Shown here: positions 1-17,808 of the stretch, in pieces
How positions within the stretch are numbered: the stretch's first letter is position 1
Layout of the letters: every line of letters starts with the position of its first letter
IMG/VR virus record: IMGVR_UViG_3300031918_000006
Coordinates: 51,599-115,598 of that record
DNA: 64,000 nt
Reading direction: 5' to 3' (one strand)
From: a virus
Program-made: the position numbers and the translations under genes
The notes under the pieces: model-generated
What the model saw: the letters and a program-made list of their open reading frames with translations, nothing else
What the model was told of the DNA's origin: nothing
Database searches by the model: none

Positions 1-2
1 AT

Positions 3-3000
3 AGTTCAGAAATTCAATTCACTAATAATTTAAATAATTTTATTAATCAAGAGTTTAATAAGACTTTCTTAGAAAATAGATATAAAGATGTTACTATTGA
101 AGGTAAAGAGTCTGATATGCCTACAGTAAGATTTGAATTATCTAAAGGAGTATTTATTACAGCTAATTTAGCAAACGGTGGTATCTCAATTACAGATGGT
201 ATTAAAACTACTGATTCTAAAGCACTTGATTTTAAAATAAGTCCTATACAAGAACAAAAATTAGTAGAAATTTTAAATAAAATCTTACCCCAATTACAAT
301 TAAGAGATGATAAAGGAAATGACTTTTATTATCCTCTTTTTACTCAAGTATTTTCTCCTACTCTGGATGATCATGTAGAAGCATTAACAGCTCTAGCTAA
401 AGTGGCTGGATATGTAGCTTATACTTCATCTATGGTTAATGAAATAGGTAAAGATGGTTTATTAGGTAGTAAATGGATGAAAAATTTTGGAGCAGACAAG
501 TCACCTTATATTAAAGATGATGAGGAGTTTTCTATTGCCAGAATGTTTCCAGGTTATAGTGATATAGCTAAAAATATTGGTAAAGGACTCTCTATTATTA
601 ATGGTGAAACACATAAAGCTGTAATTAAAGTAGGTAATGTTACTGTTCCTACAATTGGAGAAGTAAGACATTTATATGCTCTTCCTAAATGGAGGAATTG
701 GTTAATCAAGCAAAATGGTAATAAATTAACTGGAATGCCTATTGCTAGTAATCTATTTATGAGAAATCCTGATTTTTTAAAAGGATTTAAAATTAGAAGT
801 TTTGTAAAATCAGGTGATAATGTGAAACATTCCTCAGAGATGGCACCACTTGAAATAGCAACTACTTTCATAATGCATGACTATATAGCAGCTGCTAATA
901 AATACAATGAAGTTTACATTCAATCTACAGTATTCGCTGATAAAAATAGCCATAATAGTGTAGTTGTAAAACTAAATGAAGAAATTCAAATCCCAGGAAT
1001 TACTAATAAAATCTCTCTCTCAAATGTAACAGCTACTGAATTAAAACAAGCTGCTTTTTTGAATAATGCTACTTATTATAAAGCTATCTCAGATAAGTTA
1101 ACTTCTACTTATATACCAGTGCTACAGACTCTATTGCCTGGGACTACAATTGAATCTACTTTACAAGGAGTTCATGATGCCATGAGCAAAGTTCAAGAAC
1201 AGGATTTTAGAAATGCTTTTTATAAACATTATAATGGAAGTGAGTATATTATTGAAGATTTAGGAATAGAAAAGAATAAAAAAGATGGCACATGTGGTTT
1301 ATCTCCTTTATTAATTTACTATACTGAAATGTATACTGATAAATCAAAAACTACTCCTGCTTTTACAAAAATGATGAAAGCTAACGAATTGCTTTTTGCT
1401 AAAAGTTTAAACTCATATAATATGAATATTGAGTACATGGATGGTAAAGGAAGTCTTAATCCTTTATTTATTCGTAAGGGTACCTCAACTATTTTTGATA
1501 CTTTAAAAATAGCAGATGAAAAAACAGGAGATAGAATTACTAAAGAGAATTTTGAAAAAAATTGGGTAGATCCTTCTACAAAATACTTAACCATTTATAA
1601 AGGAGGAGAATTAAATCCTTTGCTTAGACATTATTTTTACATGGATAACTATATTTCTGAGAATTTATCTCAAGCTAGTATGGGGACTATTCATAATCAT
1701 CCATTTAAAGGAAAAGCTAAGGCTAAACCTGGTACTTTTGAGTTCTTTACTGAAATAGAATCTGCTAAAACAGCTGCTATGTATAAAAGACAACTTCAAG
1801 GTACTCCCATGAAACCTTTGAATTTAAATTTAATCAATGGTGTACGTGAAACTATGAGTTCTGTATTTTTAACTGATATAAATAATCCAGTTTATACTAG
1901 TTTTGGAATTAAAGATAAGATGACAGTAACTGACGGTTCAGCGCAAGTAACCCCTTTACAATATATTCTACAAAACAATTCATTACTAGAAAATTCAGTT
2001 GGTCCTAATGCTAAGATGTTTAGTTTATTTATGGATCCAAAGTATAACTCATATGGTTTAACTAAATATGCAGAATTTGGTATTACTAATGAAATGATTC
2101 AAAATTCTAAAGGTTCTACTTATGATCTTATGAATTTAATAGAAAAAAGTTACAGGTATAAACCTTTTACTAGGAGTATTACTATTGAGGAATTTAATCC
2201 TAATACATTTGATTATGATAAAACTTTAGTACAATATACTCCAGATATCTTAAAAGATTTTAAGGGTAATAATATAACTATTGAAACAATTGCTCCTAAT
2301 GGATTATTCTATGTAAAAAATGATCAAGTATATGAGATTAAATCTTTAACAAGAGGTACTACTATAACTCAACCTTCTGGAGAAGTAATAGTAGCAAAAG
2401 GAGAATCAAATGATTTTCAGGTGCAGGCTATAAATTTAACCACTGGAATGGCCGAAGTTCCTAAATCTGTTAAAATAAATGATTTATTTGATTTATGGCA
2501 AGCTTTGGGGGCCGAAAATTCAGTATCTATTGATAAAGAAGGACAATATTCTGGTAGTAGAAATCCTGGAGAGACATTAAACTTTACTGAATCTGATGCT
2601 TCTCATTATGCTTTAGCAGAATTTGTAAATAGAGTAGGCCATAAAATGGATTCTAATCAAAAGGTTAATTTAATCAATAAATATGGTTTAAGAGATCTAT
2701 CAGATCCACATACTAATGCTATATACTCTAAAGAAACTGAGGCTAATTTTGTAAAATTATTTCCAGAGTTTAAAGTAAATAAAACTGACTTTAAAGTACA
2801 CAATCAGACAAATACATGGCAACCTTTAAAAGCAATGTTCATTGGAAAATATATCCACACATCTGCACAAAAGTCAGGTGCTATAAATGTGCATAATATC
2901 GATGATGTGTATAACCAAACAAAACCAATTTATCCAGTAGATGTTCCAGCAATTTCTACAGGATTACTTATGACTACAGAGCATGAAGTAGAAGGCTCAG

Positions 3001-5951
3001 AGATCACTAAAATGACTCAAATCTATAGTGCTATAGAATTTATGGGTGATTCACATAATGTGTCTAGTGGGGTTTATAATGCCATTGCTGACGTCTTAAA
3101 TATTAAACTTAAATCTTTATTTGATGCTACTGAATTCCAAAATGTAAATAAAGAGGCATTATATAAAGAAGTTACTGACAATTTGATTCGCACATTTAAC
3201 TCTAAAGACCAACAATCTATTGGTAAGTTCATTGGACAGATGGTAGAAAGAAATTCAGACGAGATAAAAGCATTTACAGCTCAAGCCAAAGAAGCCGAAG
3301 CTATCACAGAAGATGCTACAGGTGAAGAGCCTGGAGTAGCTAGTACTATGAGTATGAGTATAGTTAGAGATGGTAAAAGAATGCCTTTTAGTACTTATAT
3401 GTACAGTTCTTTTATATCTCTTATGAGTAATTTTTTAAATAAAGAGGCTATTAAAGATAAACAGTCTGGCATTGCCTCTCCTATTAAACCTTCTGGAGGT
3501 ATGCTTCAAGTGTATGATTCAGAAGATATTAATGGTAAAAAAGATGTACTTTTAAGAAAAAATTACGATAAATTAAATGCTGCTGAAAATATAGTGGAAG
3601 CCCCAATTACTATTGGAGAGATTTCTTTAAATGATTGGGTAAGAGAAAGTGATGGTAAAACTATGAAAGAGTATCAAGTAAATACTCCAGAAAAGTTAAT
3701 TGCACTTAAAAGAAAGGATACAGGAGAATCTGTTCCAGTTCAAACTTTTAAAGGATTTTGGACAAGAGGTACAGTACAAAATGATACTAATAATGTTTAT
3801 CTATTTGGCGATAATACTAACGATAGGATGGTTACTAAATATATTCCTGGGGCAACCCAAGCTGTTATTAGAGGACTTCCTAATGCTATAGGAATTGATA
3901 CAAAGAGAGATAGAGGTACTACAAGTAAATCATTCTTAACAGATGCTGATCTTCCTTGGTTTAAATCACATGTAGACGAGCAATTAAAGAAAGCACAAGC
4001 TTTAGGTAAACCTATTATCCTTCCAGAAGATGGAATTGGAACTGGAAAAGCTATGTTAAAAGAGAAAGCTCCTGCATTATTTGCATACTTAAATGAGGCT
4101 CTATCTAAATTAGAAACAACTAAACCTTCAAAAGTAAAATTTGTAAAATTATATGGTAAACCAAGAGATTTACAACCACCACTTTTAACTTTTAAAGTTA
4201 TAGGTAAAGGAATGAAAGAATCTCCTATGTCTATTTATGAATTACCTGATTTTGCAATGGTTTATGACTATAAAGAAATTTTGGAAGATAAAAAACCCAT
4301 GACTGCAGAGTTAGGTTCTTTTTTAACTAAGAGATTTCCAGGAGAAAATATTGAGAAATTAATGAAGAATACCAAATTAGTAAACAATGCTTTACGAGTT
4401 AATATTCAAAGTATTTTTAATAGAATTGATACTCAACATAATGTCTTAATTAACGGAAAAGAGTATCCAGTAGAAGTGTTAACACGTTCTTCTGGGGAAG
4501 CCATTGGCCCAAATATTTATAGAACTATGTTTGACTTACCTAAGGGAACTTCAGTTAATCAAGTTACTGAAGATTTCTTATTTCAAAGAATGTATGATAA
4601 ATCTAAACCTGCTATCAATGATAAAAGTTGTTATGCTTACGTACAGAATCCAAATGGAAATCATATCTACATTTTTAATAAAGTTCCAACTGAATTTACA
4701 GAATATACTCAAGGTAAACAGATAAAAGAAATTAATGGACAGTATTGGGTAGTAGATGGTAATGGTGATCCCAGATATATAGCCCCATCAGGTCTTACAG
4801 GTACAGCACTTATTGGTGGAAAAAGAGTAGAAGTAATTGTCACTAATGATTTACCAAGTCTTCAAAAAACTCTTCAAGAGACTAAAAATTATGACAAAAG
4901 TTTACAAACTGGTAGAATTTATAATGTCAACGAAAATAATGATGCTATTCTTAAAGAAGAGTGTGCTATTCTAGCTAAAAAAAGATTTTCTAGTTTTAGA
5001 ACCACTTTAAATTATATTGCAGCACGTATTCCCGGACAAGGTTTCCAATCATTTACTGATTTAAAACTTGTAGACTTTATTCATACAGAAGGTAATACAG
5101 TTATGACTAACCATTTTACTTCCTGGTTAAAAGGAGAGGATTATGATATTGATAAAGGATTCTGGCTTGGATTAACTCTTAAAAATGGAATTGTAGTAGG
5201 TTGGGCTAATGAATTTGATTATAGCTCAGAAGAATCTCTTATAGCTTCTATGTCTCTGCCTTATCCTGATAAAAAATGGAGAAGTTTAGACACAGAAGAT
5301 AGTATTGATGATCCTGCAGAAGTTACACTTACTAACGAAGAAGTAGATAGCCTATTTGAAGAAAATATGTCCAAATTACGTAGTGATACTTTAGTTAAAT
5401 TAGGTAATATTGATAATTATAATTTCTTAGGAGAAAATCACACAGCTTATGAAGTACAAGAAAAAGTTAATGAATACTTTATGCAAACTATACCTTTAAA
5501 TGCTATGGAAGATGCTGTTAAGAATAAAATGGCTTGGGGTATTAGAGATGCTGTAGTTAAACCTGTAAACTTAAATCATACAGAGTCTCCTATTGGAATG
5601 GAAGAACTTAGAGATGAAGCCACGGAAGCTAATAGAGTTGTAAGTAATAATAATCCAATGAGTAAGGCTGATTTTCAATATGCAAACATGGTTGGTAAGA
5701 ATGTAATTGGTATTGCAGCTGTTGCATTAAAGATTTGGAGTGCTGCTTCTTTCTACGGAAATGATAAAGTAAAAAAGGGAGAATTTGCTTCTATATTAAT
5801 GGATAAAAATCTCAAAATTAACGGAAAAAATCGTTATATTGCGAGCCAAGCAAACCTTAACTTTAGTGCGAAGGCTTCTACTGTAATTACAGATGAATAT
5901 ATTGCTGATCAAGTAGGTAAAAATAATATTGAGGAAAATTGTAATGGATAA
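3..5951 (+). CDS. Virion-packaged double-psi-beta-barrel RNA polymerase of crAss-like phage, catalytic part (5'-partial)
   Basis: Frame is open from base 3, so the true start is upstream of the window. Has ARIPGQ followed by the catalytic DxDxD loop GEDYDIDK (5139-5153), plus TDGSAQ and SAQKSG motifs typical of crAss-like RNAPs. Ends ...EENCNG. Confidence 0.9.
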   Translation, partial: SSEIQFTNNLNNFINQEFNKTFLENRYKDVTIEGKESDMPTVRFELSKGVFITANLANGGISITDGIKTTDSKALDFKISPIQEQKLVEILNKILPQLQLRDDKGNDFYYPLFTQVFSPTLDDHVEALTALAKVAGYVAYTSSMVNEIGKDGLLGSKWMKNFGADKSPYIKDDEEFSIARMFPGYSDIAKNIGKGLSIINGETHKAVIKVGNVTVPTIGEVRHLYALPKWRNWLIKQNGNKLTGMPIASNLFMRNPDFLKGFKIRSFVKSGDNVKHSSEMAPLEIATTFIMHDYIAAANKYNEVYIQSTVFADKNSHNSVVVKLNEEIQIPGITNKISLSNVTATELKQAAFLNNATYYKAISDKLTSTYIPVLQTLLPGTTIESTLQGVHDAMSKVQEQDFRNAFYKHYNGSEYIIEDLGIEKNKKDGTCGLSPLLIYYTEMYTDKSKTTPAFTKMMKANELLFAKSLNSYNMNIEYMDGKGSLNPLFIRKGTSTIFDTLKIADEKTGDRITKENFEKNWVDPSTKYLTIYKGGELNPLLRHYFYMDNYISENLSQASMGTIHNHPFKGKAKAKPGTFEFFTEIESAKTAAMYKRQLQGTPMKPLNLNLINGVRETMSSVFLTDINNPVYTSFGIKDKMTVTDGSAQVTPLQYILQNNSLLENSVGPNAKMFSLFMDPKYNSYGLTKYAEFGITNEMIQNSKGSTYDLMNLIEKSYRYKPFTRSITIEEFNPNTFDYDKTLVQYTPDILKDFKGNNITIETIAPNGLFYVKNDQVYEIKSLTRGTTITQPSGEVIVAKGESNDFQVQAINLTTGMAEVPKSVKINDLFDLWQALGAENSVSIDKEGQYSGSRNPGETLNFTESDASHYALAEFVNRVGHKMDSNQKVNLINKYGLRDLSDPHTNAIYSKETEANFVKLFPEFKVNKTDFKVHNQTNTWQPLKAMFIGKYIHTSAQKSGAINVHNIDDVYNQTKPIYPVDVPAISTGLLMTTEHEVEGSEITKMTQIYSAIEFMGDSHNVSSGVYNAIADVLNIKLKSLFDATEFQNVNKEALYKEVTDNLIRTFNSKDQQSIGKFIGQMVERNSDEIKAFTAQAKEAEAITEDATGEEPGVASTMSMSIVRDGKRMPFSTYMYSSFISLMSNFLNKEAIKDKQSGIASPIKPSGGMLQVYDSEDINGKKDVLLRKNYDKLNAAENIVEAPITIGEISLNDWVRESDGKTMKEYQVNTPEKLIALKRKDTGESVPVQTFKGFWTRGTVQNDTNNVYLFGDNTNDRMVTKYIPGATQAVIRGLPNAIGIDTKRDRGTTSKSFLTDADLPWFKSHVDEQLKKAQALGKPIILPEDGIGTGKAMLKEKAPALFAYLNEALSKLETTKPSKVKFVKLYGKPRDLQPPLLTFKVIGKGMKESPMSIYELPDFAMVYDYKEILEDKKPMTAELGSFLTKRFPGENIEKLMKNTKLVNNALRVNIQSIFNRIDTQHNVLINGKEYPVEVLTRSSGEAIGPNIYRTMFDLPKGTSVNQVTEDFLFQRMYDKSKPAINDKSCYAYVQNPNGNHIYIFNKVPTEFTEYTQGKQIKEINGQYWVVDGNGDPRYIAPSGLTGTALIGGKRVEVIVTNDLPSLQKTLQETKNYDKSLQTGRIYNVNENNDAILKEECAILAKKRFSSFRTTLNYIAARIPGQGFQSFTDLKLVDFIHTEGNTVMTNHFTSWLKGEDYDIDKGFWLGLTLKNGIVVGWANEFDYSSEESLIASMSLPYPDKKWRSLDTEDSIDDPAEVTLTNEEVDSLFEENMSKLRSDTLVKLGNIDNYNFLGENHTAYEVQEKVNEYFMQTIPLNAMEDAVKNKMAWGIRDAVVKPVNLNHTESPIGMEELRDEATEANRVVSNNNPMSKADFQYANMVGKNVIGIAAVALKIWSAASFYGNDKVKKGEFASILMDKNLKINGKNRYIASQANLNFSAKASTVITDEYIADQVGKNNIEENCNG

Positions 5952-8451
5952 AGGATGTATACATACATACAAAGGCGTAGAATATAGGAATTATCAAGAT
6001 TTAAAAAATGCATTAATTGAGGAGCAGAGTAGTCACTACTTTGCTCCTTTTATGGCTGCAGTTTTAGAAAAATTAAAGAATAATCCCGATATAACGGGCG
6101 TGCAAGAGATTGAAAAGGTCGTGAAAGAAATTTCTGATCAATTTATGTTGAAAGAAGATGTTAGTTTAACTTTGAGTCAGTTATTAAGTGCTGCTACTGA
6201 TAATGCTAAAGAATTAATCTTAGCTAAAATTAATGCAGGACCTGAAACTGCTGGAGTTTATGCATACTTAACCATGTTAGGAGTTCCTTTTAAAGAAATT
6301 GCTCAAATGATGAAGAGTGATGCAGTTAAATGGGTTATTGAGAATTCTCGTAAAAATATTTTTGATAAACAAACTGATTTTAATAGTATTAAAAGTTCTA
6401 TTAAAGAGTTTGAAAATGGCCCTAACGTATATAAATATTTAGATTTTGATAGGGCCAATATTTTTTCTAATATTCTAAGAGATAGTTTAAAAAATAGTAC
6501 TTTTTTAGGAGCACTTCCTTATGGTAATATATTTAAAGATCCCGAAGTAATTAAGATTCTCTCTAATACTGATAAAAAGAAAGGCCCAGTCGTAAAAATG
6601 CATTCTATAGGTGCTTTAATGTCTCCTATAGATATTACAAGTAAAGTTGGAGATACAATAGTAACTAAATCTTTAGATTTTAATATTTCTAGAGAAGATA
6701 TTAGTGAATTTTACAAAACTTTGCAAGAAGGTAATTTTATAAAAGAGTCATATGAACCTGTAGTTAATAAATATACAGAAGACGAGGATATGGATATGGG
6801 TTGGGAAGATGGTGAAATTAGAAGTAATAAAATTCCTGTAAAAATTGAGGTATCTAGATTTATACAAAAAATGATAGAATATTTAGATAAAGCTCCAGAA
6901 GGAGACATATCTGAATTTGCTAATATTATGGAAGATTCAAAAGAAGTTCTTATCTTAGGTAGAATGCTTTCTATAAATCAAGGTATTAAAACTGATAGTT
7001 ACTCTCAATATGCTTTTTTTCAGAGAGTTACTGATTATATAATTGAAAAAAGCAAAGGTAAAATGTCTTTAGAAACTCCAGAGAAAATGATGTCTGAGAT
7101 GATGGAAGAAATGCCTACTCATAGAGTAGACCCTAAATTTTTAGAAGAAGTTATGAAAAGATTCGATTTTAAAAAATTTTTAGGGATAGGTTTAACACAA
7201 GAAGACGCTACTATTTATAGAGAAACTAGTAAATTGTGGTATAATAAGATTAAATCCTCCTTTAATATTTTAGCTATTGTCTCTGATACTCCCCATTTTA
7301 ATGCAATGCTAGGAGTTTCCTCTTTAATGGAAAATATGAAAAGCATGCTCTCAGTTAAAGCAAAATTAGTTGATAAATTAATTAAAGATGTTTATGATAA
7401 ACATATTATAGCTTCAGATTTAACTGAGGAACAGATGGAGTATAAAACAATTGCTGATAAGGACTATTTTAAAATTATGGATTTTGCAAATGATTCTATT
7501 ATATTAAAGTGGATTCGTTCTTTAGACGACTCTAAGAGAATTTTTGCACATGATTCAAATACTTATCACACTATTGTTGATAATAAGATTGTTAAAGTTA
7601 CTGAAGAAAATAGGGAGAGATATCCACGTAAAATTGATGTTAGTAGTGCTGAGGGAAGACTAGATTTTATAGACATGGTTCATGAGATGATGTCTGTGTT
7701 AAAAGATGGAAAATTCTTAGTTAATGGTGAGTATAAAGAACATCCTCTTCTAAAAAACAATGCTTTTATACATTCATTCGATATTGATAAGAAAAGAGAT
7801 CCTTTAACTGGTAAAAACAATAAGTTCTATAAGCTTCCTATGAATATATTAAATGTAAATGAAGCTAATACTCATAAGTTTAATAGTTACTTAATTGGAT
7901 TTTCAGACTTAGCTAAAATTGAGTATAATGGAGTTAATATACAGAATTTATTATTCTTATATAATACTTTTATTCACAGGGATAAAATTAATAGAGACTC
8001 TTTAACAAAATTGTTTGAATCTTCTACCTCTGGTATTGAACATACTATGATGGGTGATTTTATTAAATGGGCTGGAGATTTTGATTGGAATGAAAAAGAA
8101 TTACAATCTTTATCCGAATCTAAAGAGTATGATTATGATATAGACGATATTATAATTAAAGGATTGGCTACTAAGATCTTCTCAAAAAACTTGGATAGAA
8201 ATGTAGGAAAATATGCTTATGCAGTCTTGTATAATGCTTCTACAGGAGAGTCTACAAAGCAATATTATGAGTGGAACAATAGTGCTAGTACTTATCAAAA
8301 ATATGATCACTTTAGTAGTGATTTAGCAATAGCTTCTAGTGCGGGATCACAAATTGGAGTACAAAGAGGAAATGCAAATGACTTTAATGCTACTTTAAGA
8401 GAAATCTCAAATAGAGGAATAATAATAAACAATGTAAAAATAGAATGTTAA
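5944..8451 (+). CDS. RNA polymerase C-terminal part (split subunit), virion protein
   Basis: SQLLSAATDNAKELILAKINA is a motif I recognise from downstream of the DxDxD loop in crAss RNAPs. Likely start is ATG 5944 (MDKGC...), overlapping the upstream stop, with GAGGA upstream. Confidence 0.75.
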   Translation: MDKGCIHTYKGVEYRNYQDLKNALIEEQSSHYFAPFMAAVLEKLKNNPDITGVQEIEKVVKEISDQFMLKEDVSLTLSQLLSAATDNAKELILAKINAGPETAGVYAYLTMLGVPFKEIAQMMKSDAVKWVIENSRKNIFDKQTDFNSIKSSIKEFENGPNVYKYLDFDRANIFSNILRDSLKNSTFLGALPYGNIFKDPEVIKILSNTDKKKGPVVKMHSIGALMSPIDITSKVGDTIVTKSLDFNISREDISEFYKTLQEGNFIKESYEPVVNKYTEDEDMDMGWEDGEIRSNKIPVKIEVSRFIQKMIEYLDKAPEGDISEFANIMEDSKEVLILGRMLSINQGIKTDSYSQYAFFQRVTDYIIEKSKGKMSLETPEKMMSEMMEEMPTHRVDPKFLEEVMKRFDFKKFLGIGLTQEDATIYRETSKLWYNKIKSSFNILAIVSDTPHFNAMLGVSSLMENMKSMLSVKAKLVDKLIKDVYDKHIIASDLTEEQMEYKTIADKDYFKIMDFANDSIILKWIRSLDDSKRIFAHDSNTYHTIVDNKIVKVTEENRERYPRKIDVSSAEGRLDFIDMVHEMMSVLKDGKFLVNGEYKEHPLLKNNAFIHSFDIDKKRDPLTGKNNKFYKLPMNILNVNEANTHKFNSYLIGFSDLAKIEYNGVNIQNLLFLYNTFIHRDKINRDSLTKLFESSTSGIEHTMMGDFIKWAGDFDWNEKELQSLSESKEYDYDIDDIIIKGLATKIFSKNLDRNVGKYAYAVLYNASTGESTKQYYEWNNSASTYQKYDHFSSDLAIASSAGSQIGVQRGNANDFNATLREISNRGIIINNVKIEC

Positions 8452-8452
8452 C

Positions 8453-11400
8453 ATGGCATGTACACTAACGTTCACTTTAGGTGGAATAAAATATAATATA
8501 CCTGCAGAAGGTAATCTTGCTGATTATGACGGAAAAAACCTCACAGATATATTAGGATCTTTAGATTCTCATACACAAATTAATTTATTAGAGAATATTT
8601 TAAAATATTCTAACATTCAGCCGTATGATTATGAAGAAAATCCAACTGTAACTAATTTAATAGCTTCTAATAATATTCCGAATATTAGTGTAAGCAAGTT
8701 AACAGAAAAATTAGGAGATTTAGTTTTACCTGATGGATCTAATCATTTTAAATTACGTCAAGTAGTTTTAAGTATGTTAAATGAAAAGACTGATAAAATA
8801 TCTTTAGTTTCTGCACAAATCACAGATGGTTCCAAAAAAGGACATGGAGTATTTATTTCACAAACTGGAAGTATCTATGTGCATGCTAAACCTAATGATA
8901 AAATTGATACTCTTGAGGATTATTTTTTAGGAAAGGATAGCAAAGTCTTACTAGAACGTCTTGCTCATGAATTAACTCATAGTAAATTAGATGCATTAAT
9001 GGTTAATCAACCAGAACTTGCCAAGGAATTAGTTGAGGAATGGAATTCAAAAAAAGGAGGATTATCTGATGAATTTAAGAGTATTAAAAGTAGTATTGAC
9101 AAGTTAAAAACAAATGAAGCAAAAGCAAACGAAATTATTGCTTATTACTTTAGTGATTTCCAATTACAAGGGGCTTATCAAAGTAAAACACTAGAAGATG
9201 CTTTTAAAAGTATGGTTTCAAATATAATTCCATTAGAAACAATAGTTTCTACTTCTACTCCTGGCTATTTTGATTCTTCCAATCCATATGAGGATTATGA
9301 CCATTCTAGATATAAGAATCATTGGGATGATCCTGTTTGGCAATATAGACATCCTGAATTAGAACCTCCATTCACAGGAGATACTAATGCTTCTCTTCAA
9401 AAAATGGTTGCAGAGATAGATCCAACTTCTGAGAATTACCAAGCAGATAAAGCTAAACAAATCTTAGCTAGATTTAATGCTAATACCTCTGATATTCAAG
9501 AAAATTCTGAATTTAAATACCAGAAATATGATGTTTCTTATGGAGCACCTATTGTTATTGATGATTTTAATAGAGATATTCAAATCTTAAGATTAGCAGA
9601 AAATGACTTGGTATTAGTAAGTAAAGATATCTTCCTAAATCCCAAAACAAAAGAATGGGAAGCTAGGCCTACTAAAAAAGGTGAGGAAAAGTCTTCATAT
9701 CGTCCTGTTATTAGTACTTATATTAATGCTAATAATGAAGTAATGATTAATCTACCTATTAAAGATGGTAGTGGTAAAACATATTCTCTACCAGCTAAGT
9801 TTGTAGAAAGTTTACGTAAATATGATGGAGATTTAATAGATACTCCTTATAATAAAGAAAAAGCTAAAGAATATGCAGATTGGATGGTTGCTAATGTAAA
9901 TTCAGCATATGGTGATGATCCTGCCGATAGTTCTATAATTAGAACTATAGATATTACTTCTAAAACTGGAAAAAGCTTTCAAATTTCAGTGGCTTCTAAC
10001 TATGAATCTTATGGATTTAAATTTTATAACCAAGAATCTGCTAGAGAAATCTATGATGGAGCTGAAGTTGGAGATGTAGTTAAAGTGTTTATAAAAGAAA
10101 AAGGAGATAAGAAAGCGGGAGGATATCGCGCTAAAATACTACGTAAATTTGGAAACTCAGTTGAAGTAGTTACTTCTAAAGGTGCTGTACTTATTGTAAA
10201 ACCCTCTGCTATCAATGAGGTAATCTATTTAAAAGAAAATCATCCAGACTTTTTATCACAAGTAGAAAATATTGATAAAGGGACTATTAGCCAAGATCTT
10301 ATTGATGATGGTAATAGTCAATTTAGAAAATATCGTAAAGTAAATTTTGTATCACAAAATAAAAAAGATGGGGAATTTCAAGATAAGATTAATGATTATT
10401 TTGATATTTATTCAAAAGAAGATTCTGCTATTAAAGTAGAGAGACGTCGCGCTGAAGTTAAAAAACTTAAAGCCGGAGATCTTATAAAGGTTAAATGGTA
10501 TTACACAGATACAAAAACTAAAGAAGATAGAGAAGTGTCACACTGGTATCCAGTAGTTACTAAAACCTCTGATTTAGTTTACTATTACAATTCTACTTCT
10601 GAGAAAGTATCTTCTGTGAATATTTTAGATGGTAAAGGATATGAAATCTATGGATTAGCTATAAATAATACAAATTCTTCTAAATTATTTGATGAATTTA
10701 ATGAAATCAGAAAAAGTATAGAAGGATTACGTAGAGATGATACTGGTACATTACTCTCAGATGATGCTATTAAAAATAACTTAGGAGAAGCTCTTAGAAA
10801 TGCAGAACCATCTAGTTTACAAGACATTTATCATATCACAGAAATAGAAGATGTAGATGAAGTAGCAGCTGGAGAAGATAATGACCTTAAATTATCAGTA
10901 TCTCAAGTACAAAGAGGTAGTATTGTTAAAGCCTATGTATTTGATATAGATGAAGAAGGTAGAGACAAAAAAACTAAAATTTATAAATGGTTTGTAGTAA
11001 CTGGCTTTGATGAAAACACTGGAAGACCTATATGTGTTACACAAACTAAAGATAAAAATGGTAAAACTGGTGTATATAAAGAATATCCAATTGAATTTCA
11101 GAATATTAAAGCAATAGGTCATAGATTAACTGATAATGCTGATTTAGGAATTTATGGAAATAAAACTCTAAAAGAATACTTAGATAAGTTAAGAAAAACT
11201 TTTGATACTATTAGTGAACCTATTTTTATTACTCAAGCTGAAACTCCTAAATATGAGAGATCAAATAGAACTTTTAACACAGCTTTATATGGTTTACTTA
11301 AAAACGGAAAGATGGGTTATGCAGTGTCTGATAAATATGTAATAGAACAATTTAAAGATAAGACTGATTTTGAAGAATGGAAGAAAAATACACCAGAAGC

Positions 11401-12637
11401 TAAAGGATTAACCTGGACTTATACTGAACCTAAGTTGTATATTTTAAGAGGTAAACAATATATGAAGAAACTCTATATGAATTACTTAGAAGTACACGGT
11501 TTACTTAATTATGAACCCAACATACATGATAGTGTAAGAATTGGTGATATAGTTACTGAAACATGGAAGTACCAAGGAGATGATGTTAAAATGGACTCTA
11601 TGATTACTGCTAAAACTCCTACAGGATTATGGGTGGAACGTTTAGGAAAAAGTCCTTCAGGGGATTCTATTTCGGTTAGAAAAAAGATATATAGACATAG
11701 AGAAGGAGTTGAATATCCTCAGATCTCAGATGTATACTTACATAAAAAACGTGATACTACCTCAACTTCTAGAGAAGACGCTAAAAGTAGACAAACTAAT
11801 CTTTTAATTGGTAATACTCAGTATGAAGAGAAGATTAAAAATCTAGATCAGGAAACTAAAGAAAGAAAAGCAAGTACTTTAAAAAAACCACTTAAAGCTT
11901 CTTTAGATACTGATAATTTCTATAAGAGTAGAGATTCGGAAAGTAAGATTATGGAAATTGTAGATAAACTACAATCTACTTATAATGTGCCTATTATAAT
12001 GCTTAGAACTAATGAGATTGCTCAAAGTTTTGGTGATATTTTAGGAACTGATGCTACTAAAGTTAGAGGATTTATAAATGAGGGTAAAGTTTATATAAAT
12101 TTAGATAAAGCTTCTTCTGCAGAACCTCTACATGAGATGGCACATATTATATTAGAGAGTATTAAAGCCAATGACTATAATTTATATCAAACGGTTATTA
12201 ATTCTGTTAAGTCTCATCCATACTATGATGCTATAGCTAAAAATTATCCTAATAGGGCCCCGGAAGACTTAGATGAAGAAGTATTTGTTTCTATTTTTGG
12301 AGAAAAATATAGAACAGTTACTCATAATCAATATAATAAGTCTTGGTATGATCAAAATGAAAGTATATTTACAAATATCTGGAATTATATGAAAAATACT
12401 TTTGCTTCTATTTTTGACAATAAATCTATCTTGGATATTCCAAATGAAAAGCTTGCTATGATGCCTTTAGACGAATTAATTAGTACCTTTGGGGACAATT
12501 TGATGGAAGGTAAATTTAAACACGTTTTAAATTATGATACATCAACTCTTGAGAGAAAAGTGACCAATTTAAAGACAAATCTTTTATCAAATGAAGATGA
12601 ATCAGAAAGTTACCTTAGAAAAACTTGTAATACTTAA
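8453..12637 (+). CDS. Giant virion/ejection protein with two zincin-like HExxH motifs and SH3/KOW-like repeats
   Basis: LAHELTH (~8963-8980) and PLHEMAH (12131-12145), each followed by a downstream Glu (ANEIIA, DEEVFV). Repeated xxGDxV(K/T) strands in the middle. Confidence 0.7.
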   Translation: MACTLTFTLGGIKYNIPAEGNLADYDGKNLTDILGSLDSHTQINLLENILKYSNIQPYDYEENPTVTNLIASNNIPNISVSKLTEKLGDLVLPDGSNHFKLRQVVLSMLNEKTDKISLVSAQITDGSKKGHGVFISQTGSIYVHAKPNDKIDTLEDYFLGKDSKVLLERLAHELTHSKLDALMVNQPELAKELVEEWNSKKGGLSDEFKSIKSSIDKLKTNEAKANEIIAYYFSDFQLQGAYQSKTLEDAFKSMVSNIIPLETIVSTSTPGYFDSSNPYEDYDHSRYKNHWDDPVWQYRHPELEPPFTGDTNASLQKMVAEIDPTSENYQADKAKQILARFNANTSDIQENSEFKYQKYDVSYGAPIVIDDFNRDIQILRLAENDLVLVSKDIFLNPKTKEWEARPTKKGEEKSSYRPVISTYINANNEVMINLPIKDGSGKTYSLPAKFVESLRKYDGDLIDTPYNKEKAKEYADWMVANVNSAYGDDPADSSIIRTIDITSKTGKSFQISVASNYESYGFKFYNQESAREIYDGAEVGDVVKVFIKEKGDKKAGGYRAKILRKFGNSVEVVTSKGAVLIVKPSAINEVIYLKENHPDFLSQVENIDKGTISQDLIDDGNSQFRKYRKVNFVSQNKKDGEFQDKINDYFDIYSKEDSAIKVERRRAEVKKLKAGDLIKVKWYYTDTKTKEDREVSHWYPVVTKTSDLVYYYNSTSEKVSSVNILDGKGYEIYGLAINNTNSSKLFDEFNEIRKSIEGLRRDDTGTLLSDDAIKNNLGEALRNAEPSSLQDIYHITEIEDVDEVAAGEDNDLKLSVSQVQRGSIVKAYVFDIDEEGRDKKTKIYKWFVVTGFDENTGRPICVTQTKDKNGKTGVYKEYPIEFQNIKAIGHRLTDNADLGIYGNKTLKEYLDKLRKTFDTISEPIFITQAETPKYERSNRTFNTALYGLLKNGKMGYAVSDKYVIEQFKDKTDFEEWKKNTPEAKGLTWTYTEPKLYILRGKQYMKKLYMNYLEVHGLLNYEPNIHDSVRIGDIVTETWKYQGDDVKMDSMITAKTPTGLWVERLGKSPSGDSISVRKKIYRHREGVEYPQISDVYLHKKRDTTSTSREDAKSRQTNLLIGNTQYEEKIKNLDQETKERKASTLKKPLKASLDTDNFYKSRDSESKIMEIVDKLQSTYNVPIIMLRTNEIAQSFGDILGTDATKVRGFINEGKVYINLDKASSAEPLHEMAHIILESIKANDYNLYQTVINSVKSHPYYDAIAKNYPNRAPEDLDEEVFVSIFGEKYRTVTHNQYNKSWYDQNESIFTNIWNYMKNTFASIFDNKSILDIPNEKLAMMPLDELISTFGDNLMEGKFKHVLNYDTSTLERKVTNLKTNLLSNEDESESYLRKTCNT

Positions 12638-12647
12638 AATAATATAA

Positions 12648-15600
12648 ATGAGTAAATGTAAATTCACCTTAACAGTAAAAGGTAATAATATAGAATTTGA
12701 TACTGAAGAACAATTAAATTCATATCTTAAAACCAATTATGACACTCTTTCTAGAGGTCATATTGGCGGAGATGTGGAATTATCTACTGTATTAGAAGGG
12801 AAAGAAAAGACAAAATTAGAACAAACTGTGGCTAAATTACAAACCATTGCTTCAAAGACTCCTGAGATAACTACTGTAGAGTTTAACGAGAATGGTGAGA
12901 GAGTAATTAAATCAGCCTATGAAGGTGTTACTAAAAGAATAAAGCGTCTTGCAAAAGCCGGGGGATTACCTGTGACTTATTATGATGAAAAAAATTATAT
13001 TGATAATAGATTGATTCAAATACGAAGCGCACTTCGTAGGGGGGTAGGTCCGGAAACTTTAAAGGCAGACTATGCTAATATTATCTCTAAATTTACCACA
13101 GGAGTTGAGCAATTAAAAGGAGCAGAGTCTGAAACTTATGATAAGCTAACTAAAGCTCTTATTATGCCTTTAATTATTAAAGAACAGGCACAAAGAAAAT
13201 TATTGGGAACATTTGGAACAAACTTACATAGAATGGCAGAGACATACTTTGCAAACAGATTAGAAAACTCAGATAAGTCTTTTTCCATTGGTAATTTCCC
13301 CGCAGGTATTACAAATCTTTCTACAGAAGGAAAAGAAAATTATTTACAGTATTTAAAAGAATTAACTAACTTTTTAAAGTCAGAACATGGAGATGATGTA
13401 GTTCTTCTCCCAGAATATAAAATATTTGATGATGCTACCAAATTAGTAGGAATTATTGACTTATTAGCAATAGATAGTATGGGTAAAGTTCATATTTATG
13501 ACTTTAAAGCCTCATATAAAGATCCTTCTGATTGGCATTCAGCTAAACAGATTGAATTTAAATATCAATTAGGCATTTATTCTAATATGTTGAAAAATAA
13601 AGGATTTGATGTACGTGGAATACAGGTTTTACCTATTACCATGCTTGATATTAATTTTGATGATGAAACTATTCCAAGATTAGCCGAACATCTTCCTTTT
13701 GATGCAAGTCCCTCTGAAGATATTAAATATAATATCAATAATAGTGTTATTCCTTTAACAACTGCTGCTTTCTTTGAATCTACATCTAATAGTCATGCTA
13801 TTATCACTGAAAATCTAAAAAAGGCTTGGGGATACAATTTAAAATTAAAATCATCCTACGCTAATGTTCAAGCTTTTAAAGATAGTAGTAGAGTTACAAC
13901 TGATATAAATAAACCTGGAGTATTCACTTTCTGGGATAATATTAAACGTAAGTTTATTGATAATACTGCTGAGAGTTTAGATAAAAACATTGAGAATTAC
14001 TTAAAATCAGAAGCTGAGGCAACCTCTTCTGAGTTACTCCGTTTTAAAGATTGGATGATTGCCTCTATTGCTGGGAAAAAACAACTTATAGACTTCAAAA
14101 GAAGAAGTGAGATAGGTAATATTCATATGGTAAGAGCTTTTGAAAAATATACTAAAGGAGGATGGACTTTAGTTGCAGATGATGCAGATCTAGATAGTTT
14201 AGGACTTTTAATGTTTGTAAATGAATCTAATAAGTCCGTAGAATTTGTATCTTATACAGTAAATGCTTTAAATAAAAAGGTTAAACTTCCAATTGGTTCT
14301 ACTATAGTAGGAAACTTTATTTCTGATGGTAAAGGACTTGAATTACCTGATTTATTACCAGCTACAAATGGCAACATAGAATTATTAAAGACTTATTTCT
14401 ATATTAATGAAAATGCAGAAAAATTAAAAGATTTTACTGTAGGTAGAGTTATGGCTTATAATCCAATTAATTCTGAATTTGTAGTATATAACAATGATGT
14501 GCTTAAAACTAATTTTGGATATTTAATCTCTAGATTAGAAGGTAAAAATACAACTTTAGAAGTAAATACTACTGATAAATTATTAGCTCTTCATAATCAA
14601 TTTGTTGAAATTATAACTGAACCTTCTACTTCACAATCAGAAAAAGATTTAGTGAATAAATACTTAACCACTTTAAATGATTACCAGAACACTGGCCGTA
14701 TGGAGAGTCTTAAAATTATACAAAAAGATTTACATATGTTATTGAACAAATATGGTCAACATAAAGTAAATAGTTTTATGTTATTTGAGGAAAAACTCTA
14801 TGGTATGATCAGTGAGGCTATTGTAGCAGAAGCTGACTTAAGAATTTCTACCTCAGAAAAAGATATTCCTAAATATAGTGCAAATGGTACTATGCTTTCT
14901 AATCCTGGAAGTATTGGCTCTCGTAATTTACGTGTATTTGTGGATGTAATTAAGTTATCTATGCATAAAATACGTAGAAGACAAACTGAATTCAAAGCAA
15001 CTAACGTTGAGATCTTTGATAAGTATCTAACTTCTAAAGGAAAAACTAATTTACGTAGAGCTACTGTTGGAGACAACATTAGGGCTTATGATTCTTTGTT
15101 TGAGGGAAATTCTCCTAATAAAGAACTTATTTTAAAGAATCCATATGATAAAAATACTCCACTAAATAATGAGGAAAGAGAATTTTTAAAGTATTTCTTA
15201 AAAGAAATTAATTTTAGAAGATTTAACACTCAATCTCTTGATTCTGAAACAGCTCAAGACATGATTTCAAGTAAGGAATGGTTTAAATTGCCTTTATTAA
15301 GAGCATCTAGTTCTTCAAAAGCTTCTAATATGAGTCTTAAAGGATTAAGAGATGCTACTACAGAAAATTGGAATAGTTTCTTAAATACTAATCACTTATT
15401 TGATGAGAAAGATGAACAAGCTGTAAAAAACAGAAGTGAGGATATGTTTACTATGTTTAATGAGTTTAATTTTCATGCACATCCTGATGCTCGTATGAAA
15501 TTGATCGAGCAGCAGAGTCCTAATGCATTTGAAACTAATTTAGAGAGAGTTTTAGACAATTTTGTATTTTCCGCTATTAGAAAAGAAGAATATGATGACA

Positions 15601-17078
15601 TGTTACCTATTGCTAATGCTGTACGTACTACTATCGCTTATAATGGATTTGGAGTAAACATTCCAGTTCCTAATGCCTTAGAATTTATGGATAAGTACTC
15701 ACAAGCAGCTGTTTTCAATGAAAAATCTATACCACCTGAATTAAGAGGAGTATACAAAGGGATTAGTATAATTAAGGATATTACTAGTAAAATGAACTTA
15801 GGTATTAACCCATTAAGTGGTTTTGTTAATACTTTACAGGGTTTATGGGGTAATGTGTCTAGAATTACTGCTGGTAAGTACCCAAACATGTTCGGAAAAG
15901 AAGATTATTTTTGGGCTTTGAATCATTTTTGCAAAGATTCCTCTGAATCTATGACTAAATTGACTGTTTTGGAGAATTTAAACATGATTTATGGTATCAA
16001 TAATATGGATATTAATATCCTCTCAGAGGTCATGTCAAAGAATAATAGTGGTCTTTTAAACTTCAAATCCAAGTATTTATACTGGATGGCGTATGCTCCT
16101 GACTATTTTAATCGTATGACTCTTTTTATTGCTCAAATGCATAAAGATGGTTGTTTTGAAGCTCATAAGATGGTTGGAAACCAAATGGTATATGATTGGA
16201 CACTTGATAAAAGATTCTCTGAGTATGCTAAAGGAAACACTTCACACCCAGACTATAATAATCAATTCTCTTTATATATGGCTGTTTTAGCTGATTTTAA
16301 TAAAGAAGGGTATGCCTTAACAAAAGGACAAGCACTACCTTATGCTTATACTGGAGCGCAAAGAGAGAGTATGAAAATGTTCTCTGATAGTATTCATGGT
16401 TACTATGACCATGAAAGTAAAACACTTGCAAATAATACTATTTTAGGGGTTTTATTCTTTCAGTTTAAGACCTGGATTACTGCTAAAAAAGATCAATGGG
16501 CTCTTCATCCTGATACATATGCTATTGGGGATTATGGACCACTTGTCTTAGATGGGGTAAAGCAATTTATAGATAAAGATGGAAATCAGACTACTGAAGA
16601 TACTGGTATGCCTATGATGAAAATGCAAGGCTCTTTTCAAGAGGGTATATTATATTCATTAAAAGGTATGGCTCAAGATTTTCAAGAAGCTAAATGGGAT
16701 ATTGGTAAATTATGGGAAATGACGAAAGAACATCCTGAGAGAATGTCTAATATGAAATTAATGCTTTTTGATTTAGGAGTAGTTATAGCTATGGCAATTA
16801 CAACAGGTCTTATTGATTGGGATCAACTAAAAAAAGATGACACTTATGCTTATACTATGTATAGAGCCATTATCAGATCTAGTTCAGATTTAAATGTTTT
16901 AAATAACGTTACCACTGTATTAGATATGAAAAAGTCACCATTTATGTCGTTTAACTATATGGGAGATTTAATTTATGGGATGGGACCTGTATTAACAGGT
17001 GATCAAGATTTCTCTAAATATCTCTTCACAAATACTGGTCTTTTGAGGCCGTTTACACCGCTGCTTGCAACAAAGTAA
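12648..17078 (+). CDS. Giant virion/ejection protein with N-terminal PD-(D/E)xK (RecB/Cas4-like) nuclease domain and C-terminal hydrophobic helices
   Basis: GTNLH...E...GIIDLL...IYDFK...YQLGIY nuclease motifs. C-terminal LMLFDLGVVIAMAITTGLI is transmembrane-like. Confidence 0.75.
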   Translation: MSKCKFTLTVKGNNIEFDTEEQLNSYLKTNYDTLSRGHIGGDVELSTVLEGKEKTKLEQTVAKLQTIASKTPEITTVEFNENGERVIKSAYEGVTKRIKRLAKAGGLPVTYYDEKNYIDNRLIQIRSALRRGVGPETLKADYANIISKFTTGVEQLKGAESETYDKLTKALIMPLIIKEQAQRKLLGTFGTNLHRMAETYFANRLENSDKSFSIGNFPAGITNLSTEGKENYLQYLKELTNFLKSEHGDDVVLLPEYKIFDDATKLVGIIDLLAIDSMGKVHIYDFKASYKDPSDWHSAKQIEFKYQLGIYSNMLKNKGFDVRGIQVLPITMLDINFDDETIPRLAEHLPFDASPSEDIKYNINNSVIPLTTAAFFESTSNSHAIITENLKKAWGYNLKLKSSYANVQAFKDSSRVTTDINKPGVFTFWDNIKRKFIDNTAESLDKNIENYLKSEAEATSSELLRFKDWMIASIAGKKQLIDFKRRSEIGNIHMVRAFEKYTKGGWTLVADDADLDSLGLLMFVNESNKSVEFVSYTVNALNKKVKLPIGSTIVGNFISDGKGLELPDLLPATNGNIELLKTYFYINENAEKLKDFTVGRVMAYNPINSEFVVYNNDVLKTNFGYLISRLEGKNTTLEVNTTDKLLALHNQFVEIITEPSTSQSEKDLVNKYLTTLNDYQNTGRMESLKIIQKDLHMLLNKYGQHKVNSFMLFEEKLYGMISEAIVAEADLRISTSEKDIPKYSANGTMLSNPGSIGSRNLRVFVDVIKLSMHKIRRRQTEFKATNVEIFDKYLTSKGKTNLRRATVGDNIRAYDSLFEGNSPNKELILKNPYDKNTPLNNEEREFLKYFLKEINFRRFNTQSLDSETAQDMISSKEWFKLPLLRASSSSKASNMSLKGLRDATTENWNSFLNTNHLFDEKDEQAVKNRSEDMFTMFNEFNFHAHPDARMKLIEQQSPNAFETNLERVLDNFVFSAIRKEEYDDMLPIANAVRTTIAYNGFGVNIPVPNALEFMDKYSQAAVFNEKSIPPELRGVYKGISIIKDITSKMNLGINPLSGFVNTLQGLWGNVSRITAGKYPNMFGKEDYFWALNHFCKDSSESMTKLTVLENLNMIYGINNMDINILSEVMSKNNSGLLNFKSKYLYWMAYAPDYFNRMTLFIAQMHKDGCFEAHKMVGNQMVYDWTLDKRFSEYAKGNTSHPDYNNQFSLYMAVLADFNKEGYALTKGQALPYAYTGAQRESMKMFSDSIHGYYDHESKTLANNTILGVLFFQFKTWITAKKDQWALHPDTYAIGDYGPLVLDGVKQFIDKDGNQTTEDTGMPMMKMQGSFQEGILYSLKGMAQDFQEAKWDIGKLWEMTKEHPERMSNMKLMLFDLGVVIAMAITTGLIDWDQLKKDDTYAYTMYRAIIRSSSDLNVLNNVTTVLDMKKSPFMSFNYMGDLIYGMGPVLTGDQDFSKYLFTNTGLLRPFTPLLATK

Positions 17079-17122
17079 AAAAATAGCCCCTTAGAAATTT
17101 CTTTCTAAGGGGCTTTTAATTT
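17079..17122. terminator. Bidirectional intrinsic terminator at the strand switch
   Basis: Perfect 13-bp stem AGCCCCTTAGAAA (17085-17097) / TTTCTAAGGGGCT (17102-17114), with an A-run on the left and T-rich tail on the right, between convergent genes. Confidence 0.9.
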
Positions 17123-17808
17123 TATGAGGAAAACATTTTAAAATATTCAGTGATTGAGGTACCTAAAGCATCTACAAAACCTTTTTTAGCTCGATCTGAA
17201 TGTTTAGTACCATCAAACCAATCTTTTACTGTACCTGTGCCAAGTAAATGAGCTGCAGCAGCCATTCCATTCTCTGTAATTGGTATTCCTTTGAAACTAG
17301 TGCCTATATACTTCAAGTAAGGGGTCAACTTTTTAAGATTAATAGTTTTATAATTCAAAGCAGCATTATGTTGTGCATTTAAATCTGTATCATAATCTTG
17401 AGCAAGAATACCCACAGTTTTTAAACTATCATCATTAAATTGATATAGTCCTCTGTAAGATCCTTGTGTAGCAGTAGGTATTAAAGAGGATTCTCTTAAT
17501 CCTAATTTATATAAATAGTCTTTATTATACTCAGAAGTAGGTAACTGCTTTATTGATTGTATACTCTGTTGGACAGTTGGATTATTGGTATTAAAAGGGA
17601 CTTTTTTCTTTACAGGATAAGGAGTTTCTTCAGTAGGTCCATCTATTTCAGTCGATCCACCAGCTATTCCAGGTAATCCTGCCATAAAGTCCATATATTC
17701 TTTTAAATAAGGAGAGGGTTCTGGTATAGTAGAATCTATGCTTGTGGGTTTCACACCATTACGATAATTATTGATTTTTTCTTTAGAGGATTGATTAAGT
17801 AGGTCCAT
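17122..17808 (-). CDS. Lysozyme-fold / lytic transglycosylase-like protein
   Basis: RESS catalytic Glu, GLYQF motif, AAAHLLG helix. Confidence 0.7.
   Translation of the reverse strand: MDLLNQSSKEKINNYRNGVKPTSIDSTIPEPSPYLKEYMDFMAGLPGIAGGSTEIDGPTEETPYPVKKKVPFNTNNPTVQQSIQSIKQLPTSEYNKDYLYKLGLRESSLIPTATQGSYRGLYQFNDDSLKTVGILAQDYDTDLNAQHNAALNYKTINLKKLTPYLKYIGTSFKGIPITENGMAAAAHLLGTGTVKDWFDGTKHSDRAKKGFVDALGTSITEYFKMFSS

Follow-up and report, generated by a model that had tools for sequence, protein, structure and literature searches.

The 64,000-nucleotide stretch of DNA that was analyzed here, bases 51599-115598 of the 115,598-base virus record IMGVR_UViG_3300031918_000006 from IMG/VR (hereafter the window; completeness of the record is estimated at only 65%), raises the question whether giant phage proteins encoded by consecutive genes are joined end to end through cysteine (Cys) residues at their facing termini. 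An earlier note, made from the letters of the window alone, had pointed to such residues at three junctions and had proposed that docking tags join the proteins in gene order into a chain of more than 5,600 amino acids (aa). Open reading frame (ORF) listing and translation found the three quoted junctions as written. The chain is, however, longer than had been assumed, as its 5′ part lies outside the window, upstream of the window edge. ORFs and translations of the whole record give five consecutive giant proteins of 2718, 2534, 835, 1394 and 1476 aa (8,957 aa in total) with four junctions that carry Cys on both sides. The last four of these proteins are referred to as A to D. Protein A, whose size had been given as 1944-1982 aa, starts upstream of the window and is the 2534-aa member of the series. 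Docking and linkage of the consecutive proteins are well supported by sequence comparison and a complex model, and it appears probable that terminal tags together with a disulfide string this giant cargo into one linear chain in gene order.

Already within this genome the distribution of Cys is highly uneven. The chain contains 16 Cys among its 8,957 residues (0.18%), eight of which are located at facing termini (Table 1), compared with 268 among the 26,739 residues (1.00%) of the 79 other ORFs of the genome. Protein A has a Cys at residue 5 and, with Cys2532, one at the third position from its end. That the 835-aa protein B contains exactly two Cys, at residue 5 and at its very last position, was confirmed by translation. 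The three to four Cys counted earlier in the other giant proteins hold for C and D with three each, but not for A, which includes five in its full length. The absence of any Cys near the C-terminus of D, the last protein, was likewise correctly described. The first protein of the chain thus exhibits a C-terminal Cys only and the last one an N-terminal Cys only, which argues for links between neighbours and not within one protein. A Cys among the first six residues is found in four of the five chain proteins and in none of the 79 other ORFs (Fisher p = 2.6e-6), and one among the last five residues in four of five vs. seven of 79. At background Cys frequency the probability of four junctions with Cys on both sides amounts, by our own arithmetic, to ~3e-11. 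The two proteins preceding the chain (1364 and 605 aa) contain no Cys at all. Directly upstream of these two Cys-free proteins, a 143-aa ORF (genome 35378-35809) has Cys as its last residue, with no partner Cys following it.

Table 1. Proteins of the chain, their terminal Cys codons and other features of the region. Positions refer to the window unless marked as genome (positions of the whole record).
Feature	Position	Strand	Description
Upstream giant protein	genome 41789-49945		2718 aa, 3 Cys; C-terminal Cys second from last; no N-terminal Cys
Protein A	1-5951 (genome start 49945)	+	2534 aa, 5 Cys; window covers residues 553-2534; by comparison, N-terminal, catalytic part of virion RNA polymerase
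Cys2532 of A	5940-5942	+	C-terminal tag; from translation
Protein B	5944-8451	+	835 aa; Cys codons 5956-5958 and 8446-8448; by comparison, C-terminal part of polymerase
Protein C	8453-12637	+	1394 aa; Cys3 (8459-8461), Cys861, Cys1392 (12626-12628)
Protein D	12648-17078	+	1476 aa, last link; Cys4 (12657-12659), Cys at 1095 and 1169
DUF7831 domain	3744-4097	+	A residues 1800-1917, inserted in polymerase; 87 bits
DYDID motif	5139-5153	+	A residues 2265-2269; DxDxD catalytic motif of two-barrel RNA polymerases
HExxH motif	12131-12145	+	C residues 1227-1231, just before C-terminal tag; putative zincin-like domain
PD-(D/E)XK nuclease domain	13203-13670	+	D residues 186-341; PF12705, 27.5 bits vs. 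cut-off 22
GC-rich hairpin, then T run	17086-17117	.	Directly after D; terminator-like operon end, from sequence

Conservation of the terminal Cys in homologs, which had been set as a test beforehand, was assessed in 80 related contigs, each read with the genetic code (table 11, TAG=Q or TGA=W) that gave open frames; recoded stops were present in 25 of the 80 loci (e.g., L002 and L006 with TAG=Q; L011, L041 and L060 with TGA=W). Between large co-directed ORFs 99 non-redundant junctions were counted, and Cys was sought in a six-residue terminal window. The expectation held: of 74 tight junctions (-40 to +60 nucleotides), 70 had Cys on both sides, none on the upstream side only, two on the downstream side only and two on neither. 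Gapped junctions (n = 25) never had Cys on both sides or downstream only; four had it upstream only and 21 on neither side. Both tight downstream-only junctions belong to L002, and in one of them the upstream Cys lies 15 residues from the end and thereby beyond the six-residue window. The two tight junctions with neither Cys flank an ORF that is part of an insert. For one of the gapped upstream-only junctions, also from L002, the N-terminal Cys tag is hidden behind a GTG start. The post-polymerase protein in question (L002:12180-12200) starts with GTG, overlapping the upstream stop, and its tag is missed by ATG-only calling.

The rule is valid under all three genetic codes in the late-gene block of these relatives. 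In an alignment of 35 homologues of B with a mean column identity of 21%, the C-terminal Cys is one of 16 invariant columns, and nearly all of 120 B homologues end with a hydrophobic strand followed by Cys and 0-2 further residues. Several polymerases of more than 3,000 aa (L004, L012, L060) even contain exactly two Cys, one per end. Among the 70 two-Cys junctions, the C-terminal Cys is followed by 0-5 residues (0-1 in 55 of them), and the N-terminal Cys occupies positions 3-10 (position 3-4 in 57). TGT and TGC are both used as codons, with TGT being dominant, and the offset from the end varies. The type of tag follows the partner, as three junction classes could be distinguished, each with distinct conserved features. 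These comparisons support the view that the terminal Cys is a conserved feature at the protein level, which would link each protein to the next one and not the N-terminus to the C-terminus of the same protein.

A further line of evidence comes from places where the same polypeptide is broken in some phages and continuous in others. The DYDID motif of A shares its local context with DFDVD in gp50 from crAss001, and B aligns with the polymerase part that follows the A-like part in relatives. As most relatives encode A plus B as a single protein of ~3,000-3,700 aa, A and B together are, judged by these alignments, the virion RNA polymerase, which is split in this phage. The break lies ~260 residues past DYDID. 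The homologous stretch is free of Cys in 18 of the 21 fused polymerases that remain after removal of redundancy, and the split polymerase has ~57 extra residues at the break, some at the C-terminus of A and the others at the N-terminus of B. In the relatives L090 and L091 (~80% identity) and L092 (~55-63%), the polymerase is likewise split, and both Cys are kept at shifted offsets. In lineages with three instead of four proteins, the polymerase joins the D homologue directly; there, the polymerase ends in a stretch homologous to the tail of C, with a tag of the type that otherwise stands in front of D.

Most gapped junctions turned out to be inserts of ~0.3-2 kb placed exactly at the catalytic motif (GSDY|DIDK), sometimes with an ORF of their own (L019:8061-9122; also L031, L036, L043, L047, L054, L056 and L081), and their flanks do not exhibit terminal Cys. 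For this gene block, both interruptions of the polymerase at the DxDxD motif and endonucleases carried by introns have been described (PMC7886860). A group I intron search of the inserts yielded one weak match (23 bits at a threshold of 50; L019 8094-8300) and one blank. If spliced out, such inserts leave the protein continuous and therefore serve as a natural negative control. Together, the splits, fusions and inserts support, at the level of sequence, the idea that the Cys pair appears where the polypeptide is broken and is absent where it is continuous. A Cys/Ser swap hinting at a nucleophile, which was considered on account of Ser at the N-termini of distant B homologues, was rejected, as these N-termini are gene-call artefacts. 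They follow an insert located at the DxDxD motif, and the true A|B split comes only ~260 residues later.

The same arrangement is found in two cultured members of the Crassvirales. In crAss001, gp47 (2341 aa) has its sole Cys at position 2339, gp50 has Cys at 5, 1334 and 2404 of 2412 residues, and gp49 (1349 aa) has its sole Cys at position 5. The gene of gp47 lies on the strand opposite to those of gp50 and gp49. That the rule holds across opposite strands, together with the use of both Cys codons and the variable offset, indicates that it does not reflect a DNA motif. Phi14:2 follows the rule without exception: gp67 and gp65 contain one Cys each, gp67 as its last residue and gp65 at position 3, and gp66 contains two, at positions 3 and 2179 of its 2180 residues; all three are annotated as virion proteins from tandem mass spectrometry proteomics. 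These proteins of crAss001 (PMC10172136) and phi14:2 (bioRxiv 10.1101/2020.03.07.982082) have the polymerase motif, the neighbour proteins and the terminal-Cys rule in common with the phage studied here. Mass spectrometry has placed such proteins in the virion of crAss001 and phi14:2 only, both of which package this cargo block. The chains also differ in length, with three proteins and two links in both cultured phages compared with five proteins and four links here, where the polymerase is split in a lineage-specific manner and a further protein with a putative zincin domain is present.

For junction 3, between C and D, a complex of the last 250 aa of C and the first 200 aa of D was predicted, each with an alignment of its relatives. 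The pair reached a score of 0.71 (individual runs 0.66, 0.73 and 0.71), whereas the best of three controls scored 0.00. The mark of 0.71 is reached by 58 of 80 solved complexes vs. two of 110 mismatched pairs, with at least 53% of the contacts shared between the runs. The surest contacts are antiparallel (243-9, 244-8, 245-7, 246-6 and 247-5), a register that places Cys248, i.e., residue 1392 of C, opposite Cys4 of D. The model thus supports docking of the C-terminal tail of C on the N-terminal head of D with the two Cys in register. The earlier idea of docking tags joining the proteins in gene order is to this extent backed by the comparison and by the model of this one junction.

Next to this tag, the last 170 residues of C contain the HExxH motif and a downstream Glu pair, which are kept in 13 of 14 tails. 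A zincin-like domain has been reported for the orthologues of phi14:2 gp65 in the polymerase gene block, and on account of these motifs C may contain such a domain. A Pfam search of this tail yielded no match, and Foldseek with the predicted tail (predicted local distance difference test, pLDDT, 70.5) none at E ≤ 0.001, with only weak matches to M34-type zinc proteases at E > 0.6. In the model of junction 3, the His and Glu residues of HExxH touch residues 40-49 of D (window 12765-12794), and the head of D is placed as if it were in the active-site cleft. The zincin-like domain may, on the basis of this model, act on the joint.

A structural precedent exists outside the crAss-like phages. In cyanopodophage A4, cryo-electron microscopy revealed a disulfide between Cys1715 of gp27 and Cys5 of gp26, which fixes the C-terminal helix that gp27 inserts into gp26 (PMC12002296, PNAS 2025); the two proteins alternate in a pentameric ring within the head, and the bond is part of this ring (PMC12002296). 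According to the genome (Anabaena phage A-4L, KF356198), these are the sole Cys of gp27 (position 1715 of 1717) and gp26 (position 5), and both proteins are encoded by consecutive genes. As in the phage studied here, consecutive giant internal proteins are poor in Cys, with one near the C-terminal end upstream and one near residue 5 downstream. BLAST of the proteins of this phage against gp27 and gp26 yielded no match better than E = 0.05, and as far as can be seen from sequence the resemblance would be one in the way of working, not in descent. A4 differs in having a single link between two proteins, a pentameric ring and no RNA polymerase. The A4 paper (PMC12002296) formulates no general rule, nor does it deal with chains. 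In N4-like phages (Schitoviridae), the ejected giant proteins, including the virion RNA polymerase, are strongly depleted of Cys, which has been explained as avoiding unwanted disulfides in the periplasm (DEV paper, PMC11445570). In these proteins Cys is simply absent, whereas the depletion observed here spares one Cys per facing end, which makes the retained residues more telling.

The following mechanism would account for these observations. The cargo that is packed in the head and injected would comprise the 2718-aa protein, the polymerase (A and B), protein C with its putative zincin domain and the nuclease-domain protein D. The last residues of each protein, with Cys 0-5 residues from the terminus, would dock on the first residues of the next one, which has Cys at position 3-6 and, in C and D, a predicted beta-hairpin after it. 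An intermolecular disulfide would then join the two facing Cys within the particle, an assumption that draws on A4 and on the disulfides of crAss001 particles. In the latter, disulfides stabilise the tail and the portal vertex (PMC10172136), so that such bonds do form in crassvirus particles. The proteins would thereby make up one linear chain that follows the gene order, and each joint would leave side stubs of few residues only. Passage through the tail constrictions requires partial unfolding of the cargo in crAss001 (PMC10172136), and stubs of only 0-5 residues would keep the assembly near-linear, which would suit a chain passing such constrictions. The tether may in this way fix stoichiometry and order of the cargo, which would cross the tail as a quasi-continuous thread, and the reducing cytoplasm would then free the proteins.

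Several points weigh against this mechanism. In the crAss001 atlas, these proteins could not be resolved. The model of junction 3 yields contacts, but no distance between the sulfur atoms, it relies on shallow, own-built alignments (13-14 rows), and its partner chain is of low confidence (pLDDT 52-54). Of the two tight downstream-only junctions in L002, the second is a true exception, as its upstream tail does not contain any Cys. The tags of different junctions are alike in outline, and the order of links could therefore be less strict than the gene order. Moreover, as the phages assemble in a reducing compartment of anaerobic hosts, oxidation must take place during or after formation of the particle. 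A search of the 115.6-kb record, with an estimated completeness of only 65%, detected neither thioredoxin nor glutaredoxin. An Erv-type oxidase was not matched in the record either; the same search was silent in every control genome and is hence uninformative.

A reducing compartment and the absence of a match to an oxidase in the record would be in line with another explanation, in which the tags dock non-covalently and a metal ion bridges the two Cys, or these serve other thiol chemistry, instead of a disulfide. Each side provides one invariant ligand, and a terminal amino or carboxyl group together with nearby Glu, Asp or Asn (as in tags of the type "-E-x-C") could complete the site. However, a conserved second ligand (His or Cys) is present in no tag class, the sole structure of such a pair, that of A4, contains a disulfide, and crAss001 particles include disulfides as well, which makes this explanation unlikely. 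It is also conceivable, although on balance unlikely, that the disulfides are real but act as static staples of a packed internal core, such as a pre-ejectosome as in A4, and are broken before ejection without any threading. The A4 bond indeed lies within the ring of gp27 and gp26 inside the head. Yet a staple could lie anywhere in an interface, whereas the Cys are located at the extreme ends, and the pair replaces the peptide bond exactly at gene splits, which fits a need for continuity of the chain.

That the terminal Cys are nucleophiles of processing or ligation, for instance in intein-like trans-splicing or polyprotein cleavage, and not part of a tether, appears highly improbable. Some crAss-like phages fuse the three proteins into a polyprotein thought to be cleaved, and the putative zincin-like domain adjoins junction 3. 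A split intein, however, consists of an N-intein of ~100 aa starting with Cys and a C-intein of ~35 aa ending before Cys, and the 0-5 residues past the C-terminal Cys and the 2-5 residues before the N-terminal one leave no room for such halves. In addition, the fused forms mostly lack Cys at the homologous site (18 of 21). In an AT-rich genome in which the genes of A and B overlap at junction 1 and TGT is the dominant Cys codon, one might suspect that the pattern is due to chance, to composition or to a signal in the DNA around starts and stops at gene junctions. This idea has the probability of ~3e-11 in this genome alone against it, and is judged refuted by a pattern that is kept at 20-25% protein identity and in three genetic codes, and by its occurrence between non-adjacent, convergent genes in crAss001. 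A disulfide-linked chain in gene order is the explanation which we prefer.

With regard to the source of this DNA, the large terminase shares 25-29% identity over 83-88% of the protein with annotated crAss-like terminases (E down to 1e-38), and on this basis the source is a divergent crAss-like phage. A megablast search of the region against phage records yielded no match, and tblastn with B and D against a phage collection hit three unannotated gut-phage records only, with no close record. In addition to its nuclease domain, D has an exonuclease match in PHROGs (2.3e-8) and a weak match to crAss001 gp49. PHROGs and Pfam revealed nothing on the giant proteins beyond DUF7831, PD-(D/E)XK and the exonuclease PHROG, and sequence searches of the PDB with D, a profile of B, and A gave no match. 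The hairpin that follows D sits between the end of this gene and the end of a convergent gene (17122-17808); with its T run, it resembles a terminator acting in both directions, which would close the structural operon.

These Cys residues came up in none of the full-text searches, and no mention of them was found in the atlas of crAss001, in the preprint on the polymerase of phi14:2 or in a large comparative study. The earlier statement that no description exists thus holds for crAss-like phages in the literature searched, but a link of this kind is already known from A4 (PMC12002296), where it is a single one. New, as far as known, are a multi-link chain running through the virion RNA polymerase and a Cys pair at every real break. 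It is possible, if doubtful, that the cargo is even a "virtual polyprotein", a reducible thread of ~9,000 aa whose order is set by cognate tags and which is fed through the tail as a whole and falls apart in the cytoplasm. Genes could then be cut at any place as long as a pair of tags is added there, for which the A|B split and its ~57 extra residues would be an example. If this were true, the tags would be small, portable and orthogonal protein-linking modules; they may also be regarded as short natural modules for ordered and reversible linking of proteins. For the Crassvirales, the comparison yields a simple group-wide rule, with one Cys per facing end that is gained when a gene is split and lost upon fusion. 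This rule makes the question testable at the bench on two cultured phages, and it would explain why gene boundaries in this block drift so freely.

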